64,000 nucleotides of DNA from Perkinsus olseni (Eukaryota), in the NCBI GenBank assembly GCA_013115125.1, contig JABANN010000031.1, positions 1 to 64,000 of the forward strand, in the 5' to 3' direction. Of the stretch, positions 2,645-61,210 are shown one piece after another; position 1 is the stretch's first letter; the number at the start of each line of letters is the position of its first letter. Position numbers and translations under genes: made by a program. The notes under the pieces were generated by a model, which did not search any database, had not been told where the DNA came from, and was given only the letters and a program-made list of their open reading frames with translations.

Positions 2645-3369
2645 CAACTTTGACCCGGAATCGTCGGACATGTAACTCCGCACGACTCTTTTCCGACCAC
2701 CTGTCCCGGGAATTATCTCCATAGTTCAGCCCAGAAATATTCTCGGGTAAGAGAAGGAAGGAATTATTCCAAGAAATATTGGCAATATTATATTGCGTCT
2801 TTTTTCGGGAATCATGGGAATTGAGTGTCACATACCGATGAGGCTGCTGTTCCTTGCGGCCTCCTGATGTTTCTGTTGCTATCGTGCTCATATTGGGGGA
2901 GGAAAGAACGATTCTTCCTCACCCTTCAGCCGCCCTGGATACTTTCGGCGTGCCGCCGAAATTCGTGTTACGGTAAAACAGCTTTTCCCGGTGAAACTTT
3001 CACCGCGGATGCTCGGCTGCCCTGCGGAATTTATCTTACCAAGCTGTAGTAGTTTTAATATTCACCCCGTTCAAAACTGAACTCATCACCATCTGAGTCT
3101 AGGGAATGGACTTATTCCAAAAAATGGGGGTATGAAAAACCCACTATGGGTGGATCTATCGCGGGCGGCCCGAGCCAAGCCACCTACCTGGATCGAGCCA
3201 ACCTATCACAGAGTTTAGCGAGAAAGTACGGCCATAGCTCGGCCCGAGGCTCGAACCCCGAGCAAAAGTATGCGTGCCGACAAATGTACAAAAGGACACT
3301 GAGAGGCTCTCAATGGGGGCAGAAACAGCCGGACGAATCGGCGACCGCAACTAAGCGCAAAACCGATGG

Positions 3370-3813
3370 TTAGGTGTTATAAGGGAGATAATTGTCGATA
3401 TATTTTATATTGTCGAGAGTAAAGACCTTCTTCTTTACCCCGTCCAGTTCCAGGTAGACTTTATCTTCCCTAGCTGCGATTACAATGAAGGTAGAGCCTT
3501 CCGTCGGCACTTCAGAGCTTGGACAGGTCGCCGCCACTTCGCCGATGAACCTTATGTAGTCTGCACCTCCGCCGAACACAGAATTGGTTAACTCGCCGAC
3601 GATTAACTCGCTTATGCGGAATTCGTGTTGGACACCAACCGGCTCACCAGAATAGTCTTCACAGGAGAAGGTTATCATCACGTCTTTCGGTGTAATCTCC
3701 ATCTTCAAGGCGAAGTAGGCATCGTAAAAGACATATGAACCCGGGGCCAGGTCTAGGGCTCTTCTGAAAAATGTAACCTCTTTCCCTTCGAGTATAGTCT
3801 TGAAAGATATCGT
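3370..3813 (-). pseudogene. 3' part of a host gene of unknown function, cut by the LINE insertion
   Basis: Protein-like ORF (…ISFKTILEGKEVTFFRRALDLAPGSYVFYDAYF…CP…). Its apparent start codon lies inside the antisense LINE 5' UTR, so the true N-terminus is missing. Confidence 0.5.
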
Positions 3814-3832
3814 GTAGCCATCTTGGCTCAAG
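3814..3832 (+). other. Spliced-leader relic (Perkinsus-type SL lacking its first 3 nt)
   Basis: GTAGCCATCTTGGCTCAAG equals nt 4-22 of the Perkinsus SL ACCGTAGCCATCTTGGCTCAAG (recalled sequence). It is followed by TCTACT rather than a GT donor, so it is not an SL RNA gene. Confidence 0.9.
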
Positions 3833-3858
3833 TCTACTAACACCCTTATCATCACACT

Positions 3859-6031
3859 ATGCCAGCCGATTCCTCATCCGGCGGAGAACGCGGCCTGGCT
3901 ATCCTATGCAACGGCACCCTCGACGACGGGTCCCTGGGACCAGAAGACATGGAAGTGCAGGATACTAACGTGGAAGTGGATACGCCCGGGACCCCTCCAA
4001 TCCCCGGGCAGGTAGGAAGTGGAGGGAACGTCTGCGAGGAATCTAACTCTCATACGGCGTCCCAGCATGGGAATAGAATAGATAAGCGCTCGACTGGCAT
4101 AGCGGACGACCTGGTGGCGGCGTGGGACTCAGCAGAATCCCTCATGCAAGAGTCGTCACTAGTCGGTGTGGCGATACCCGCGGGTATCGTGCGAGCATCA
4201 GGGTCTAGCACGGTACGAAGTGGAGGAGTAGTAGCCCTCCCGCCCTTTGGCGGGGCGTTAAATGGCGATTCCCACCACTTGACCCCACCCCGCGCCGTGG
4301 GAGAAAAGTCCGGGCGACATCATCTTACTCCGACTGTAAGTTAGTATCGGCTCTTCGAGACAGTAGGAAGCAACGCAATCACTGGGCTGATACGTGCCCC
4401 AATATCGAGAAATTGGTCCATCTTCAAGACACACTCAGAAGACTTGCAGCCCAGGACCCGTCGGCTGTGGCCGTTGACGAGCTCCTAGTGGCTTTGAATT
4501 CCGTCCTTGGACTTCTCACCTTATCGTACGCTACTAGCGTTGGGGAGTCGGTGTACTCAGTAGTTAAAGGAGGCCAAAGTTAAATGGCTCATGACAGCTA
4601 GGGGGCAGGCGCTCCCAACAATGGCTCCCAGGACCAAAGGGGGCAGAACGTCGCTAGTGGTAGTAGCATCGAGGACGCTCAGGCGCCTCCAGCCACACTT
4701 GTACCCTCTACGATTACAACGGCACTAGCAATTCGCGATCCAGGATTCGGCAGTTGAGGAGACGGTTCGAGAGTGCCTCACCGGAACCGCAACCATCACC
4801 TCGGGAAGAGAGCAGTTCTGCTCTGGAGCGGCAGCGAACTCGCACCGCTGAGGCGACCATAGTCCCTCCACCCTGTAGCAGATTTCGACAGCCGAGGCCT
4901 CAAGAGCAACGAGTTGAACCGTCCATACCCTCCCAACGGCGCGGAGGCGGACTCCCAAACAGCGTCGTTCAGACCAGACTCGGGCGCGAGTTGGCCCCTG
5001 AGATTAGGCGCGGCACCAATAGCCACGAACCCGTGAATTCTTGGGCAACGGTCGTCTCGCGCCGCCGCCCAAAAAACAAGAACATCACCGGGGCTGTGAA
5101 CACGGTTACCACGCCGGGCCAACCCTCGCGGCAGCCTAGAGCTGCTCTAGTAGAGCAGCCATGCAAAAAACTAGGCCAACAACGGGAAGGGTGGTGGAAC
5201 TACTCCCTCGAGAGCCAGGTCTACCGTTGACACCGAGGCAGTTACAGGAGATCAGGTCTCAAGCACTCAGTGCCCTTCCGGAGTCGGTGACGGTCGTGTC
5301 GACATTCCCAGTAGGAGGCGGGCTCGGCCTGACCCTTTCAAAAGCAGAAGAGGTTACTGTGGCCTGCCAAGCGCTGTCGTGTATGCGAGGATGGGTTGCA
5401 CGCCCACGACAGTCTCTCTGGCCTCGTATCATTCTTTTCAACACGAGCTGTCCTCGCTCGGCATCCCTCGACGACATCAACGCGTCGTTCAGGAAAGAGA
5501 ACCCCGACATCATAAATGCATGCGGGGACCAACATGGGAGCACTCAGATAGTGAAAGGCTTCTACTGGCGGTCGTCCGACGACATGGTAATCACAAGGTG
5601 CGACGACCGTCGTCGCACCTTGTGATTACCGTTGCACCAGCGGCATACGCCCATATTCGCGACCGCGGGGTTAGAAAGATCAAATTCTTTAGGCTTCTAA
5701 CGGCATTTTCTACAGCCGTCGGGCAGCCCTGCTGCTACTTCTGTGGGCAACTTGGACATATAATGTCCAAGTGCCCCGCAAAGGAGGGGGGAGGGTCGCC
5801 GCGATGTTGCAAATGTGCAGGAGGCCATAAGAGATTCGAGTGCAATTCCGACACAGCCAAGTGCATCACATGTCTACAATAATATTGGTACAGGGGCCAA
5901 CAATGGACCCTGACCATCAGGCTACTGATCCAAACTGTCCCCTAGCACAGGCTAGACTAACCCGTCTGCATCGAAGAACGGATTTCGGTAACCTAGCGAA
6001 GGAGCGGCGCGCTCATGGTCCGTCGCAATGA
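3859..6031 (+). pseudogene. LINE ORF1 (gag-like nucleic-acid-binding protein), broken by several frameshifts
   Basis: ORF pieces in shifting frames. Knuckles CYFCGQLGHIMSKC, CCKCAGGHKRFEC and CITC…HQATDPNCP. The final TGA overlaps the ORF2 ATG (ATGA, 6028-6031). Confidence 0.8.
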
Positions 6032-9000
6032 CCTGTATATACCAATTGAACTGTGGCAAGAGAACGTTCTCCGTCTCTAGCATACTTGGCATCCTTTCGG
6101 CTCTCGCCATTCTACCCTCCTGTCTAGCCCTCCAAGAATGCCCGGCGGATCTAGGTGAGCTTACGAAAAAATACTTGTGGTTTAGAGCAGACCGCGGTAA
6201 TGCGGCGGTCCTCGTTCGTCAAGACATCAAGTCGATCTCTTTGACCTGTGAAAAAGATCTGGTCGCGGTATCTCTGAGGGAATGCATCGTGATTTCGATG
6301 TATATGCACCCAACAGATATGGCCCAGAGAACTCACATTAAGGAGCTTCTTGGTAATTCAGCGCCTAGCTGGCACGTGCCTTCCGTTCTGTGCGCGGATG
6401 TCAACGCGTGGAACGCGCTATGGGGTTCCAGAATGAGCTCCTTCAACACTAAAAACCAGGCGTGGACCCGCGGTTCTAAACTACTGATGCTCTTAGAAGA
6501 TTTGGACTTCCAGGTGATCAATGACCCGGAGTCCCCACCGACATTCATAGGCGGCCGGGGTTGCTCCTGGATAGACATAACCGCGGTCCGGAAGTGGAAT
6601 AAGCCGACAAAATGGGAATTCAGTCCGGAAGGATCCGGTAGCGACCACAGGCTGATTATCACAACGCTGAAGCTACCAATCGATACCACCCAACGACTGG
6701 CTCTCCGACTCACCGACGTCGAGCGAGTCAGGAATCGAGTACGGAACTTCGTGGCTACCAACTCGACACCCACAGCCGTCTCTCTGGCAACAGAACTGTC
6801 CAGAGCCGTCCGCGAGAGCACGCCCACATTGTCATGTCGGCTCAAGCCTGGGTGGTGGACAACGCGGCTAGAGGGATTGAAGCAGCGGCTCAAGCGGCTA
6901 CAAAGAAGAGTGCACCGCCGCTTCTTGCGCGGGGCCCTCCGAGGGGATTTGGAGCAGGAGCTGAAGGACCTGCGTACCGCCTACAGGGCGGAACTGAGCG
7001 ACGCCAAGAGCAGAGCGCGCAAGAGATTTTTTGAAGGACAGGCGGACTACTGTAAACTGGTTCGCCCACCGCGCGTTTCTTCTGTACCTTCAAGTCTGGA
7101 AGGTTGCCCTGAAAGCGAGAATACCGCAGCTTTCATCCTGCGCCGCCTATTTCCGAGATTCGATTCGGGCCATCGGCTGCTGTGGCGCATCAGACATTTG
7201 CTTGGTCCCAATAGAGTGGTCCCTCCCGTCACCGTGCGGGAACTGGAGCAAGTCGTCAGCCGTTTCCGAGATGGTTCCCCTGGAGAGGACCATATAAATA
7301 ATGACATTCTCAAGCAAACCTTATCAGATTTGAAGGATGTGTGGGCTCGCACCTTCACGACACTTTTGAACGAACGCGTCCACCCTGAAGAGTTCAAGCG
7401 GGGCCGGGGTTTGCTCCTTTTGAAGCCTCACCGCGATCTAGCTAAAGTAAGCTCGTGGAGACCCGTGGTCTTGCAATCTTGCGTGAGCAAAATGCTGGAA
7501 GGTGTCGTGTCAGATCGGATCTACCACGAGATCGCCTCCTCGTTACACTGCCCCGGAATATTTGGATTTGTTCGCTCCAAGTCCAGTGATCAAGCGGTTC
7601 ACCGCATCTGCAGCCACTACCGCTCAGGGATGCAGCGGGGTCATGTAGTAGCAGTATGCTTAGACGTCCGGAATGCATTTAATTGCCTCCGGCATGACTA
7701 TATCATCAAGAGCCTAGTATTACTGAACACTTCGGAGTACCTCGTTAGCTTCATCCGTAGCTATCTCCATAATCAAAGTGTAACCGTCGAACTTGGGATT
7801 CACGACTCCTCGATAACCCTTCAAGTAGGGGTTCCACAGGGAAGCCGGTTAGGACCCTTATTATTCACAGCGAGCACTATAAGCCTCGTGCGGGAGCTGC
7901 GAAAAATCAGCGGCGTAGACGTAGTTATTACAGCGTATGCGGACGACCTCACAATCGTCCTCAGCGGTCCGAGCCGCAAACACATCCGCGGTCTATGGGC
8001 CCGCGTCAAAAAGTGCCTCAACAGATGGTGCGACGCGAGTGGCCTTACCATTGACATGGACAAGTCCAGCTGCCTATCCCCTCGCAAGCCGCCCCAACTA
8101 TCTTTGAAGGGGAAAGTACTTGAGCGTCGCAAGGTGGTGCGAGTTTTGGGGGTGCACCTGGACCAGCGAATGAACTTCCGATTTCACGTGAAAAACGACC
8201 TGCGAGGCTGCCATCCAGCGGCTCGGGAGGTTACGTCGGATGGGGATAGAAAGGGCTGGGCTCAGCAGTAGGGGGGTCATTGCAACATACGAGAAGTCAA
8301 TCATTCCATATATCTCGTATGGGGTGCGATCATGGCAATCCGTATTGGAGGATGAGCGGTGCCAGACTCTGTTATCCCGCGTCGCCGCATACGCGGCACG
8401 GCTGGCGTTAAAAGCTCCTCGACGAGCATCCAACTCAGCACTCATAGCTCTGTCTGGACTGACGCCAGCGCATCTGGTGCTTGCCGGCCTGGCGGCTATG
8501 GCGGGAGCGAGGCAAGACTCGACCCTCTCAATGCACGGTAACGGTGTTCTGAATGGCTGGTCGCCTCTGGAACCGATTGGCATGGAGGGGTGGCAGCTAC
8601 ACCCTCTGCCCCCGTGGGACGATGGGATGAGCATTGAAATCCAAACGGAGGAAGCGGCCACAGCATTTGCGTGCCTGGCTCCGAGCGGCCAGGCTATCTT
8701 TACGGATGGCTCCGTCAGTCCCTCAGTACATGCAGGAGCCGCCATAGCGGCATACTCGCAAGGCGGCGAGATACATTGCGAAGGCTACAAATTGCTTGGG
8801 CACTGCACAATTGCCCAATGTGAACTGATAGCCATCGAGAGAGCCATTTCCTATGCGTGCCAGCATCGAGGAGATGCTCCGCATGGGTGGACTATTGTGA
8901 GTGACTCGCAATCCAGCTTGCGCACATTACAATCCCGTAGACAAACTGAGCGAAACGCTGTAGCATGTAGGGTCATGTCTCACTTGGCAGACCTTGCACT

Positions 9001-9574
9001 AGGGAGCCGTCCGAGGCTCAAGTGGTGTCCTTCGCACTGCGGAATCATAGGCAATGAGAGGGCAGATGAATTATGTGGGAGTGCCTCATCGCCATTCACA
9101 TCGTTTCCGGTGGCAAGCGCTAGATCTCACGTTAAGGGTCTGGTTCGAGACATAGTTTCGGACGCTTCGTCCACGTGGTGGGCGGCCCGCAAGGAATCCT
9201 TAGGCTCCACCATACGGTCACTCTTCAGCACCTTCTCAGCAGCTAGGAAATTCTCAAAGTACGAGACGTCGCCGGCGCTCATGGCGCTTGTGACGGGGCA
9301 GCTACCGACACCGCATCTACGCCACCTACAGCGGCTAAGGGCGACACCAACGTGCCCGTGCGGGGCACCCGACGGCAGCACGATCCATCTGGCTCAAGAA
9401 TGTCCGCTCTTGGATAGCGCCAGGAAGGAGGCAGGGGTGAGCTCACAACTCCTCTTGAGTAAGTTAGTCACAGCAGGCAAGCAGAGGCGACGCTTGCTAA
9501 AATTGAGTGAGTTACTTCTGAAATTCTGCGTCGATCTCAGAGATGCGGAAAATGGTTCTGATCCTCCCCCGTAG
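6028..9574 (+). CDS. LINE ORF2: APE endonuclease + reverse transcriptase + RNase H + Zn finger; one frameshift near 8191-8195
   Basis: APE motifs QLNCGK, LQE, ADVNAWNALWG, SDHRLI. RT motifs GVPQGSRLGPLLF, YADD. RNase H motifs FTDGS, ELIAI, SDSQS, GNERAD. Zn finger CPC…H…C. Removing one A from the A5 run joins ORFs 6028-8271 and 8240-9574. Confidence 0.93.
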
Positions 9575-11528
9575 ATTCAGAGCTACGCTTTCCACTTCGA
9601 ACACGTCCATGAAAGGAGTGGATCGGACGAAGACTGAAGGAATCCCACGATAGTCGAAGAGGCCGTAATGGGGACACCTTCACGTCCTCGTCGCCATTGA
9701 TCAACGCGCCGTATTTTATAACATTGTATGGCACTCACGTGCAATAGTCCGGGGGGGAAGTAGTGTCTTCATGTTATTGAGGTCCTGCATTCTCACTACG
9801 GCAACGGAGTCTCCTGAATGGCGATCGTGAATCCTGGATGTGGTCCCGGGGCGATACGTCTGAGAACGAGCAAGGTGGTGACTTGCGCTCGACGGTGACG
9901 GGAGTGGTCGCCCGCTCCACGACGTTCTCCAGGAGAACAGAGTTGTCGTCTGGTTTGCGGGTCTTGATGCATCGTAGTTCACGACGGAACCTCCTGTCTT
10001 GCGCACCGTAGTAGCTAAGCATGTCTATACCACTTACTATTGATTGGCCTGTGCTGCCTGCGGGCGTTTGTCTGTCTGTTTGGCTGGTTAAGGCCGTTGA
10101 TAAACGTTTCACTTGTGATCCGTATAATCTACCATGTCAGACGTGTATAATTCTGTTTCCACTCAAAAAAAAAGAAAGTTCGCAGCGGCCGTGAGAGAGA
10201 AACTCGGCAGGTAAGATGAGATTTCGGGATTATCGCTCAATGAGTATTGGTATGATATCAATGCTCATCATGACTGTATCATATGGCTTCCTTACCCATC
10301 TATTTGTGCGGGGATGGTACAGTACTTCTGCCCAACGCGCTATGCGCATGCGTGCAGTCTGAGGTACCGGCTGTCATTGGATTAGGGACCCGAGCCCGGG
10401 TTTGACTTGACGGTTATTCTCACGCACAGTCACTCAGGTTGTGTGAAGTTGTTTCCTCTGCTACTGGTACTCAGTCACCGACTCATTCTCGTGGATCTCT
10501 TTTGCCTGCCGGGCTACTCTTCGATTGTCATTGCGTTTCTCTAGTTATGGATAGGAAGCACGCTGCGTTGACACGTGTGCACTAATCGGTGGCCCAGCGT
10601 CTACGAGGCTAACACAATAGAAGGCGCAGGCACTATAGTATATAGGTTATACCGTAACTTTGGCATCATAGACGCGCTGACTTCATTCAGTCTTGACGCA
10701 TTCCAACGTGATGGTTCGGGCAGACGGCGAGTGATGAACACACTGTGATCCATACGGCGAACAACAGCTCTGCACTTTGTCTCCCAGTTCTCCATAGCTT
10801 CACGGTGAAGCCTTCACTGATTATCTTGAGATCGAAGACTTGGGTTCATCGAAGTACTACAAATACGGTGTTGTTCGCCGATCGAGGGCCGCTGCAGTGC
10901 TGAAGTGGGTGGTGGATTTTACTGTGCAGCCGAATCTGTATTTCGGGTGGTGATCATAAGTTGATGTCAGATAATAACCAAACTGCAGTTCAGCAGTTCT
11001 AACGTCACTTTTAATGAACTTCTAACGGCCCGTTAGTAACGGGCCTCTGAGATGCCTCCGTTCGCCAAACATCTCGAAGCTGCACAATTTCTGAACGATT
11101 TTTGGTAGAAGATTGGTATAATATTCCGCAGATACTTGATAGAGATACCGCGCGTGACGGTGTCACGGTGATACGCTGTGCGTGACCTGAGAGTGGGCGC
11201 CGGTGTTCAGAATGGTGGCGACTGCTTGCTACGGGGGCAGTTATGTGGGTCCTCGACAAGGCGTCTCTCCACTATTTCCACTCATACAGTGCGCCGTGTG
11301 ACTGGGGCGTGCTCACGATACTCGAACTCTACCCATGCCTTTCGTTTATGTACGATGAGCGCTGCGGGCGTTCGCCCTGTGAATTTCCCGTCCATCGAGG
11401 GCTCTCCGTGGGTGAGATCTCTCTGTTCGTTGGTCTGAGGTCCTCGTTTCCCGTCCATTCAGTCTGTCACTCCGACCCAGAGCCGCTTCTTCGCTTCTCG
11501 AAGCTTGGGCTTGACGTTTGCTCTGCTT

Positions 11529-13756
11529 ATGTTGCCAATCACCGACGTCTTCCTCTACGTCGTCGGCAAGGCCACATCAGCGATCCGCTCTCGACCTTTC
11601 GTCGGCCTTCTCACAGCTGCAGCTGTAGTATCCCTCTATCGCCTCAAGAAGCACCGCAAGCGTAAAGCACCATCACTTCGTGCCGCATTCGGCGGACCTA
11701 CAAGAGTAAGCCTTGCTTGTTTCACCATCTGATCTGAATTCGGTGCTGCTGATGAGTATTTTTTAGTTCTGCAACACCCTGCTCGGACTCGTTCCGGAGT
11801 CCATACAGCATACTATCTCTACCTCAGAAATCTTAGCCGACACCTACGGGGATGCCTTCGCGATGAGGTAGCCCGTGTCCACTGGTGGTTGAATCAATGC
11901 GATTGATGTGGATTATCTGCTCATTCAGAGTTTGCGATTATTAGTTCTCCTCTGTTTCAGAATTCTGGGTCGAGACTGTCTCATCCTCACAAATGGGAAG
12001 TTGATTAGGGAAGTTCTCAAGAAGCGGCCTCACAGCTTCGTTAGGTCCTTCAATGACTTATCGAGCATCTCTGGCATGCTGACTACGGAAGGAGAGGAGT
12101 GGAAGCGACCCACAGGCGACTGGGAGCCCCGGCCTTCAACGCAGCCAATGCGACAGCAATGGTACCAGGACTTTCGCTTGTCGCCAAGAGATTTGTGAGT
12201 TCACGCCGGGGGAAGCATTTGTCACCATCCCGTAACCAATGGCAATACCAACTATCAGGTACGCCTACTGGAAAAGTCAGTCAGCCAGGATGGCAATCGG
12301 ATAGTTTGGGAACCCAAGAAATCGTTCCTGCCGGTTGTATTTGACTGCCTGTGCATTTGTGTATTTGGAAAGGACTTTCATCTCGTGAACCCCGACGGTG
12401 AGAACGTCACGTGGATTTGTCACCCCCGGCTCATATTCGTGCTTAGGGCTCTTTGTTTTCCCTTATTTTACAGGGAAAAATAAGAAAACAATTCTCATTA
12501 TTTTCAGACTTGCCAGCTCCTGATGGATCTCAAGGGATCATAGGAGCGATAGAGGACCTCACGACCGGCGCAGATCACATCCTCACTCGTGTCTTCCACC
12601 CCATCATGGCCCGAGATTGCTTCCCGTGGAATTTGCACCCGATGATAAAGAAAGTAGGAGTGGAAGTGTCTGCGATTGTCTCATCCCCACGCAGTTCCAC
12701 TCTGGACTCCGGCGCTTGAGCGAGTTCAGTGAAGATCTTGCCGCAGAGAGGAGAGCAGAAGAAGATTCAGCAAACCGAGTGGACCTCCTCAGCAAGCTTC
12801 TTCATTTGCGCAAGGAGGATCTCCAAGGAAATCTTGTGACGTAAGCTCTCATCGAAAGTTCTGCTGCGAGGTGTTAGATTGAGCATGAAGTCCCTTGTTG
12901 TAGGTTCTTCGTCGCTGGTAGCGACACGACAGCTTTGAGCGTTTCTTGGTGTGTTTGCTACCTTTGCCTTTACCCTCATGTGCAAGCAAGAGCTCGGGCA
13001 GAAGTTGACCTGCTCGGTCACGATCCGGAGACCATTGACGATCTCGACCATTTACCCTTCATTAGAAGCTGCCTCCTAGAGTCGTACATACGAGTAGTCG
13101 CTCATCTATAACTTCCTGGTGTGTCCTGGATCTACGATCAGCTACAGCCTGCCATCGTCGCGCTCGGGCACGAAGCCTTAATAACCGAGGTGTCCGTCGG
13201 TGGAAAGAAAGTGGCAGCAGGAACTACGGTTGTCACTTTGGTTCGTAAACATTTGCGGACTGATGCAGGGGGCGGAAGCCTGTTCAAGTAAGTATTCTGG
13301 CAACTGCGCTCCAAAACGTTGACGCCTCTCTGAGTATTCCCCCTAGCTCGTGATGGTTGAGTTCACGCTTGAATTCGAGGCGTCAAATCATAATAATAAT
13401 CGTGGTTAATTTGTGATAGCCACTCTGTGGGTTCACACGCCCTGTCAGCTCCCGTCGGGACATGCACCCTGAATGATGGTCATGCATGCTGCTCTCGCAG
13501 GCCCGATCGATGGCTCAGCTCTGACGGCTCCGTGGACCGAGCTCGTGTCCAAGACCTTCTATCATTTGGGTCCGGTCCCAGACAGTGCCCCGGAAGGGAC
13601 ACGGCTGTCACGGCAGGCACTGTTCTGTTGGCCACGATACTGAGACATTTCGAGGACATTAAGCATAACTCCGATATATCTGAAGTCAGAGCAAGAAGTT
13701 CCGTCAGTACCTGGCCGGATAAGTTAACAGTGTCGATGTCCCCTAGGAAGATTTGA
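11529..13756 (+). CDS. Cytochrome P450 (multi-exon; apparent frameshift near 12110)
   Basis: N-terminal hydrophobic anchor, GMLTTEGEEWK…RRLGAPAF, ExxR region split by an intron, PDRW, and heme motif FGSGPRQCPG. Confidence 0.88.
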
Positions 13757-46770: not shown

Positions 46771-47344
46771 CACATAGGCTGAACCACAATAATAACGATA
46801 AGACCGCCCTGTAAGCGCGCAATGCTATGTGATCTTAGCAGACCCACGCAGCGCAGCCGCTGCATACTGGGAGACTTGGCCCGTCAGCCGTCTCTGCTTG
46901 CAACGGAAACAACAGGTTCGAAAGTCCCCTGGACTGAGGGGACAGCAGAGGGATGTCATAGTGAGCTCGATGAAGTACACCCGAAAGGCTTCACTCAGCG
47001 GCCCGGCAGGCACATGCGCGTCACGCTGCGTTGACACGAGGATTTTACGGGCGAGCGAGATAATCAATCCTGTAGGGTGTCTCGCTGAAGCTCACAGTGT
47101 GATGGTTGTGACTCACAACTTGTGAGCATGCCCTCCGAGCTTGCAGATGAAACTCGCTGTAGAGAGATTCGGAAGCGACGGGATGCCAGAAACCGTTGAG
47201 ATACTGTACGTTACACCCCGTTCGTGCAGCACCTTTACTAACCAGCAGCTTGGCGCAGTGGATAGCGTGTTGGGCTCATAACCCAAAGGTCCCTTGATCG
47301 AAACAAGGAGCTGCTATTTTTTCATCACTGAATTACGATATATA

Positions 47345-54196: not shown

Positions 54197-54612
54197 AAAG
54201 ATAAAGGTTCGCCTTTGTCTCAGTTGAAAACTCCTATGAGGGAACGCCTTTTTCGTAGATTCGGGGCTCGCACAACGGGATAGGGACAGAGTGTCCCAAT
54301 TGGCTAGTAACTAGGGAATAGAGATTCCAGTTATTCTGGTGTGCTGTCGTCAATCGGCATTTTGGTGTTGTACTGCTTCCTTGCGGTGACGCGTGGGTCG
54401 CGCCGACAAAACGATCAGTTTTTGAGATCCCACCTCGCCCACGACGAGTAAACCCTGGTTTCGAGGAGCCTCGCTTACTTTACTCGAGCATGACTTAGAC
54501 ACTGGTGTTAGTCAATGCGGATTGTCCGCAGTTATGGCTGCTGTCCCAGATTCTCACGGCAGCTGAGTTTCTCTACCCCTCACGTCCCCGAAGTCAGAGG
54601 TTTTCATCAAGA
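54197..54612 (+). repeat. Dispersed ~420-bp repeat, copy 1
   Basis: Shares exact blocks with copy 2: CAACGGGATAGGGACAGAGTGTCCCAA (54273-54299 = 60829-60855) and TGCGGTGACGCGTGGGTCGC (54382-54401 = 60945-60964). Confidence 0.85.
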
Positions 54613-60752: not shown

Positions 60753-61210
60753 CAAGATAATGTTGCAGTTGTTGCGCTTGAACGCCCTCTAGGAGGGGAA
60801 CGTCTTTCTCACAAACTCAGCGCCCGCCCAACGGGATAGGGACAGAGTGTCCCAAACAGCTAGCTACTAGCGTAAGGCAGGATATGCTCTTCCATGCTCT
60901 AGCGTTTGGCCGTAAATCGGCAGTTCGGTGTCGTGTAGCTTCCCTGCGGTGACGCGTGGGTCGCACCGACGAGCTGATCAGATTTTCGCGAGCCCACTTC
61001 ACCACGCACGCATAAACCGAGGTTTCGCAATCGAAACGTCATGATGCTCAGAGATAGCACAGGGGTTTTCAGGTGCCAACGTGGCCCTCCAGTTATCGCG
61101 GCGCATTGTGTGCCGTTACTGCCGCCATCTCAGATTCTCAAGTCAGCCGAGTTTTGCTACCTCCTTCGGAAAAGAGTAGGTTCTTTGGGAAGTAGAGATT
61201 TTGTCAAGAA
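60753..61210 (+). repeat. Dispersed ~450-bp repeat, copy 2
   Basis: Collinear, diverged homolog of 54197-54612 in the same orientation. Confidence 0.85.

Follow-up and report, generated by a model that had tools for sequence, protein, structure and literature searches.

A LINE that begins with a piece of the spliced leader

We analysed a window of 64,000 nucleotides (nt) of Perkinsus olseni DNA (contig JABANN010000031.1, positions 1 to 64,000, forward strand) in which a long interspersed nuclear element (LINE) occupies positions 3814-10173 and begins with 19 letters of the spliced leader (SL), the sequence that many Perkinsus mRNAs receive by trans-splicing. The boundaries of this element and of its surroundings were judged from contigs assembled from four public sequencing runs (X1, X7, X9 and X10). 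X1 is a short-read assembly made with k=31 that may come from the window's own source sample and is, therefore, perhaps not independent of it, and X7 carries the same organism label but comes from a different sample. From the upstream flank to the tail of the element, the locus contains the following features (ORF, open reading frame; UTR, untranslated region; APE, apurinic/apyrimidinic endonuclease; RT, reverse transcriptase):

3373..3813, minus strand: upstream flank, the C-terminal 147 codons of a 220-amino-acid (aa) protein family found only in Perkinsus (phmmer)
3814..3832, plus strand: SL-derived 19-mer, SL nt 4-22, with 19/19 identity to the published L-type SL
3833..3858, plus strand: 26-nt leader that separates the SL from the ORF1 ATG, containing TACTAAC at 3834-3840; the X7 copy of the element aligns from 3836
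3859..5882, plus strand: ORF1 region, five frame segments (3841-4344, 4209-4583, 4667-5230, 5140-5625 and 5175-5882), given as stop-to-stop ORFs
5571..5608, plus strand: 38-nt segment absent from the X7 copy, in which contig 19 joins 5570 directly to 5609
6028..8271, plus strand: first part of ORF2, with APE at ~6289-6660 and RT at ~7447-8157 (Pfam Exo_endo_phos_2 9.7e-18, RVT_1 6.5e-27)
8192..9574, plus strand: second part of ORF2, in a different frame, with RNase H at ~8693-9085 (Pfam RNase_H 1.5e-09)
9575..10164, plus strand: 3' UTR, over which X1 depth climbs toward the 3' end
10165..10173, plus strand: A9 tail, the 3' boundary of the element; its last two A may belong to the AAGAAAG of the target

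The 19-mer GTAGCCATCTTGGCTCAAG at 3814-3832, on the plus strand, is identical at all 19 positions to nt 4-22 of the 22-nt Perkinsus SL; for P. marinus, the L-type SL PmaSL1 is printed as ACCGTAGCCATCTTGGCTCAAG in Zhang et al. (2011, PMC3101222). It was the single match in the window when up to three mismatches were tolerated, and the same search applied to 100 shuffled windows returned a mean of 0.03 matches, with one match in 3 of the 100, such that an exact SL 19-mer at this position is far beyond chance. The piece lacks nt 1-3 of the SL and ends precisely at the last base of the SL exon (3832), after which the letters are TCTACTAAC. These start with TCTACT, so that there is neither a GT donor nor an SL intron behind the exon. 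Only one SL is present, and no relic follows 3832 in the window scan (at most three mismatches). The ORF1 ATG stands at 3859, 26 nt past the SL end. Letter by letter, the locus agrees with the initial annotation, which had identified 3814-3832 as SL nt 4-22 placed, without a GT donor, 26 nt before the start codon of ORF1. We also observed that the SL is directly followed by TACTAAC, a yeast-type branch-point word, and that a CAG lies 26 nt downstream, just past the ORF1 ATG (3834-3865); the pair may resemble a 3' splice site or be a coincidence.

A degenerate APE-RT-RNase H element

The element at 3814-10173 is an APE-RT-RNase H non-LTR retrotransposon. The APE domain is N-terminal to the RT and the RNase H comes after it, no Pfam match to a restriction-like endonuclease was found, and the best PDB matches of ORF2 were the human LINE-1 ORF2p (1.9e-16) and the R1Bm endonuclease (3.7e-05). 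The Pfam domains thus bear out the earlier assignment to the APE and RNase H type of LINE rather than to the restriction-like-endonuclease type. Of an I/Jockey-like architecture, the RNase_H domain was matched, and a candidate CCHC knuckle motif in the last ORF1 segment has a zf-CCHC score of 20.4 bits, under the cut-off of 20.8. LINEs of the R2, L1Tc and RTE types are known to carry HDV-like (hepatitis delta virus-like) self-cleaving ribozymes at their 5' ends; no ribozyme turned up at this element's 5' end in a scan of the whole window at the Rfam gathering threshold, which gave only a tRNA-Met and in which matches below that threshold were not searched.

To judge from its reading frames, this copy is dead or degenerate, with both ORF1 and ORF2 out of frame at several places. 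ORF2 changes frame within 8192-8271. The 38-nt segment at 5571-5608 sits at an ORF1 frame change and overlaps a perfect 22-nt inverted duplication, detected by self-blast, that forms a 45-nt palindrome at 5586-5630. The gene models of NCBI bridge the frame breaks of the element by means of predicted introns. As a separate observation, the TAG that closes the first ORF1 segment (4336-4344) falls within GTAAGTTAG, a word that looks like a donor.

The ORF models of the window agree in every letter with hypothetical proteins that NCBI lists for Perkinsus olseni, and in two NCBI assemblies two contigs carry these ORF1 and ORF2 models. A search for close homologues of ORF2 among 5.8 billion proteins gave 8 matches, the only close one being the window's own NCBI model, and the next RT was 25% identical. 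The corresponding search with the ORF1 N-terminus matched only its own NCBI model, and no longer protein matched it in the protein search. No other copy of the element emerged when the 64-kb window was searched by tblastn, using the pieces of the ORFs, and by blastn, using 3601-10700; the palindrome alone was returned, and a repeat search found nothing related.

A truncated member of a host gene family in the flank

The flank upstream of the SL encodes, on the minus strand, the remnant of a host protein. Residues 1-147 of the flank ORF correspond to residues 74-220 of P0010, with 96% identity (phmmer), and the homology runs up to the Thr codon at 3811-3813 (CGT), that is, to the letter before the SL piece. 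The first 73 residues of the host protein are missing, as tblastn of residues 1-65 against the whole window gave no match with E<1; the arrival of the LINE, or an event linked to it, would then have removed at least 73 codons. Intact members of the family are present in several P. olseni assemblies and read ELSQYN-TISFK at the junction, not the antisense of the SL. No Pfam family was found for the flank protein. No part of the window looks like an array of SL RNA genes, to judge from the protein-coding flank, the P450 gene downstream, the single SL match in 64 kb and the lack of any SL RNA family in the Rfam scan.

Three further observations concern this flank. The family (P0010-P0014) is restricted to Perkinsus, and some of its members have a signal-peptide-like start. 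The last 110 nt of the host-gene remnant (3685-3793) have ~4x depth in X1, which fits a multi-copy gene family. Finally, the minus strand of 3814-3840, which combines the SL antisense with the start of the LINE (LVDLSQDGY), resembles the native host protein (LTELSQYN). A comparable score was reached, under a liberal scoring scheme, by 443 of 20,000 random 30-mers of the window, and the shared LSQ is probably due to chance and, less likely, to a joining guided by homology.

The contigs from the public runs place the SL at the junction itself. One X1 contig (record 2; length 5690 nt, depth 84) matches 3765-9454 without a single difference and crosses the flank-SL-LINE join, which is, therefore, not an assembly chimera at k=31. 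The concern about a chimeric join that accompanied the initial annotation is met to this extent, X1 being perhaps the source of the window. In X7, contig 17 represents the flank (20 differences in 498 nt) and aligns over 3318-3815 before continuing into 580 nt of unlike sequence, and a near-full-length copy of the element, with 7 differences over 474 nt, matches the window from 3836 only, after 74 unlike nt; no X7 contig covers 3816-3835. Since flank homology ends at 3813-3815 and the element homology of X7 begins at 3836, the SL stands precisely at the junction and probably came in together with the LINE. On these alignments, it appears to belong neither to the flank nor to the second copy in X7.

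At the other end, contigs from all four runs leave the match at 10170-10172 and enter unlike sequences (16 such contigs in X1), and X7 contig 22 aligns from 10172. These diverging flanks indicate that the A-tail is a true repeat boundary; no remainder of the SL was found behind it. X1 depth was 88 on the flank, 93 in the junction bin (3794-4040) and 84.2 over 4041-9227, and from ~9230 onward it climbed through 168, 330 and 667 to 2203 toward 10172, compared with 84 on the body. From this gradient we conclude that most members of the family are short, 5'-truncated copies, whereas X1 contains the full-length body only once. Further downstream, the segment 10398-10555 has very high contig depth (~1340 in X9 and ~2620 in X10), and contigs leave it at 10555; it matched no Rfam family and could represent either a short repeat in high copy number or an RNA of high abundance.

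The junction also offers an explanation for the three missing SL nucleotides. The Asn codon that comes next in the host family would give GT at 3814-3815, and X7 aligns through 3815, so that the first two letters of the SL piece are common to the native flank. A junction formed at this 2-nt GT microhomology would be a simpler account of the absence of SL nt 1-3 than an arrest of the RT.

SL-tagged loci in environmental sequences

The same 19-mer occurs in metagenome contigs at 71 loci (L001-L071), which represent 57 distinct contexts. It is preceded by CC (SL nt 2-3) in 46 of the 57, and by TCC, GCC or ACC in 42, indicating that retro-copied SLs usually reach nt 1-2. Together with the native continuation of the host flank as GT, this count of 46 in 57 argues against the earlier proposal that the three missing nucleotides reflect RT arrest at modified cap-proximal bases. 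In 3 of the 57 contexts the 19-mer is followed by GT, and several contexts exhibit degenerate relics behind the SL (e.g., L051, L060 and L003).

Five contexts without an ORF of at least 80 aa were dropped, leaving 52 ORFs from the 57 contexts. The ORFs downstream of the environmental SLs are ordinary genes, encoding for example aspartyl protease, ankyrin proteins, lipase and globin, and 0 of the 52 match transposon families in Pfam, a weak negative result, given that no more than 6 of the 71 loci extend at least 2.5 kb past the SL. When the LINE proteins were used as tblastn queries, L051 was the only one of the 71 loci that matched, and its RT lies upstream of the SL on the opposite strand. 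These loci suggest that SL-relic retrogenes are widespread among uncultured alveolates whose SL is the Perkinsus-type TCTT variant.

Origin of the tagged copy

We consider it likely that this copy is a retrocopy of an SL-trans-spliced LINE RNA of Perkinsus olseni. Because the SL lies between host sequence and LINE, ends at the last base of its exon and is followed by no intron, an SL-trans-spliced RNA is the simplest template, and the suggestion of the initial annotation to this effect is supported as the simplest reading. What was observed comprises the identity of the SL, the positions of the junctions, the domains of the LINE, its boundary at the poly(A), a host gene cut short and, for the family, a gradient of 5' truncation; from this we infer a trans-splicing step, an acceptor and a joining at microhomology, which can be arranged as follows. 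A source copy of the LINE would have been transcribed, and the 22-nt SL would have been spliced to an acceptor located just upstream of 3833, ~26 nt before the start of ORF1. Trans-splicing would thereby have stripped the 5' UTR or promoter of the source, whatever was present. The LINE proteins would have reverse-transcribed the spliced RNA at an A-rich nick, AAGAAAG, proceeding from the poly(A) tail into the SL. The end of the cDNA may then have joined the upstream DNA at the 2-nt GT microhomology, with loss of SL nt 1-3 and of at least 73 host codons and without creation of a target-site duplication. In this scenario the SL tag is most likely incidental, as in SL-relic retrogenes, and probably not a device of the LINE family.

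Several observations weigh against such an origin. Only a single tagged copy was found. There is no target-site duplication: the upstream sequence reads ...GAAAGATATCGT and the downstream one GAAAGTTCGCAG, which have only GAAAG in common, and this does not abut the 5' end, leaving nothing to certify a simple event of target-primed reverse transcription. The X7 flank contigs, being 95-96% alike, could be paralogues and not the empty site. No SL-capped transcript of the element was detected in X9, a run guessed to be RNA, which contained four short low-depth contigs on the body; it also had contigs on both flanks and only a trace over 3794-4040, from which we draw nothing about expression. Finally, the acceptor and the 5' UTR assigned to a source-type copy are hypothetical and would fall within the 74 nt ahead of the X7 copy.

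A second proposal would make the SL part of the life cycle of the family. A LINE without internal promoter or ribozyme would leave it to host trans-splicing to release from any read-through transcript an RNA that is capped, can be translated and is competent for retrotransposition, and the AG acceptors derived from the integrated SL would make its copies expressible anywhere. In its favour, just 26 nt separate the SL from the ORF1 ATG, no Rfam ribozyme family was matched, the integrated SL keeps an AG at its nt 6-7 and 21-22, and a recycling model is established for dinoflagellate retrogenes, as described in two studies (PMC7245778, PMC3942190). However, such a dependence on trans-splicing predicts the SL followed by TCT on every full-length copy, and the near-full-length copy in X7 does not align over 3816-3835, where no X7 contig lies. 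It predicts as well that repeated cycles leave arrays of relics, yet there is one SL and no relic. X1 has a single copy of the element's body, the gene remnant upstream is antisense to the element and offers no obvious read-through, and none of the 52 environmental SL-tagged ORFs encodes a transposon protein. If the family did lack a promoter, the X7 copy would be differently processed or 5'-trimmed and not a promoter-bearing master. We therefore regard a family-wide dependence on trans-splicing of read-through transcripts, with the AG of the SL re-used as acceptor, as improbable, and the claim of the initial annotation that trans-splicing replaces a promoter and that the acceptor is regenerated in each cycle is not supported in view of the single-copy body, the X7 copy aligning without SL and TCT, and the lone SL.

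The SL and the LINE might also have been united during integration. LINE reverse transcriptases switch templates, the U6/L1 chimeras being a comparison, and the enzyme could have copied an unspliced LINE RNA up to its 5' end, near 3833-3836, before switching to an SL-bearing RNA; a natural RNA 5' end nearby would fit the start of the X7 alignment at 3836. Such a switch would nevertheless need to hit the final base of the SL exon precisely, a junction that trans-splicing yields for free, and the possible donors do not end there, since the SL RNA continues into its GT intron and mRNAs into their own bodies. We consider this slightly less probable still than a trans-splicing strategy of the family. 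Insertion of the LINE beside or into an SL relic or SL RNA gene that was already in place, either by chance or by site specificity, is suggested by the existence of LINEs specific for SL genes (CRE/SLACS/CZAR/NeSL). Intron-less SL copies are, moreover, frequent in Perkinsus genomes according to Zhang et al. (PMC3101222). Here, however, the flank is protein-coding sequence whose intact relatives contain no SL antisense, the X7 flank departs from the window at 3815, the window holds no second SL, SL intron or SL RNA family and none is found behind the poly(A), and the endonuclease is an APE and not a restriction-like one. A pre-existing SL is thus largely refuted and, in our estimate, very unlikely. 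Least probable of all, and extremely unlikely, is a join created by assembly or sequencing. In its favour, 3685-3793 in the flank is repetitive and contigs end in its vicinity, but the X1 contig crosses 3765-9454 without differences and the same protein models exist on two contigs of two NCBI assemblies, these sources being perhaps not independent of the window.

Comparison with known systems

The spliced integrated retrotransposed elements (SpIREs) of human L1 arise from cis-splicing inside L1 and lose 5' UTR or promoter sequence. The Perkinsus copy would resemble them as a LINE copy made from spliced RNA and expected to be handicapped; it differs in that its 5' part would be replaced by a trans-spliced leader, with a loss of 5' UTR that is only presumed here. 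CRE1/2, SLACS, CZAR and NeSL-1 insert into SL RNA genes and possess a restriction-like endonuclease. Like them, the Perkinsus element is a LINE physically associated with SL sequence, whereas its endonuclease is of the APE type, its insertion site is in a protein-coding gene and its SL ends at the splice junction. The trypanosomatid L1Tc/ingi elements are likewise APE-type LINEs in hosts with pervasive SL trans-splicing, but according to the abstracts their internal promoter Pr77 drives abundant unspliced transcripts (PMC1874656, PMC8190864), in contrast to the Perkinsus copy, which bears an SL.

Retroposed sequences with SL tags have been described in several lineages. In the P. marinus genome, there are more than 100 intron-less SL copies, many of them in tandem and not expressed (Zhang 2011, PMC3101222). 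SL-relic retrogenes have been explained as recycled processed cDNAs (Slamovits & Keeling 2008, as described in PMC7245778, PMC3942190 and PMC3101222), and the function RNA-dependent DNA replication is enriched among retrogenes with DinoSL relics (Song 2017). The P. olseni copy shares with the dinoflagellate and Perkinsus SL-relic retrogenes an intron-less SL exon at the 5' end of a polyadenylated retroposed unit, for which a trans-spliced template would be the likely source. It departs from them in that the retroposed RNA was that of an autonomous LINE and not of a host gene, and in its single SL without nt 1-3 and without a relic array. In Schistosoma mansoni, six genome-encoded SL exons are merged to transposable elements, which led to the suggestion of trans-spliced, retro-transcribed elements (Boroni et al. 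2018, PMC5832876). That case likewise places a genome-encoded SL on a transposable or retrotransposable element, although it concerns another phylum and an unrelated SL, and its authors caution about chimeric assembly.

The novelty that the initial annotation left for a literature search is weakened by these precedents, since SL-tagged retrocopies, including retrotransposons in Schistosoma, are already in print. For Perkinsus or dinoflagellates, our full-text literature searches, whose scope excluded the supplementary transposable-element tables of Song 2017 and Boroni 2018, brought up no paper on a LINE that carries an SL encoded in the genome, and the strings retro, transpos and relic are all absent from the main text of PMC9399869.

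Other features of the window

Two further features were annotated in the window:

11893-13756, plus strand: multi-exon cytochrome P450 gene, just downstream of the element (Pfam p450 1.3e-11, 2.1e-08)
47244-47316: tRNA-Met (CAT), the only Rfam and ARAGORN match in the window

Two direct-repeat pairs, of 75 and 89 nt and 78-80% identical, were observed at 54240-54423 and 60796-60986, 6.56 kb apart, which suggests a diverged tandem duplication.

Implications for LINEs in trans-splicing hosts

One degenerate copy is an anecdote that fits an existing model and not a new mechanism. If the proposed origin is true, this locus directly shows the RNA of a perkinsid LINE as a substrate of SL trans-splicing and, at the same time, a LINE machinery able to copy an SL-capped RNA nearly up to its cap. 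LINE machinery has been assumed, so far without demonstration, to be the maker of the SL-relic retrogenes of dinoflagellates and Perkinsus. The locus also raises the question of whether LINE copies that have no promoter might still be expressible in hosts that practise trans-splicing.

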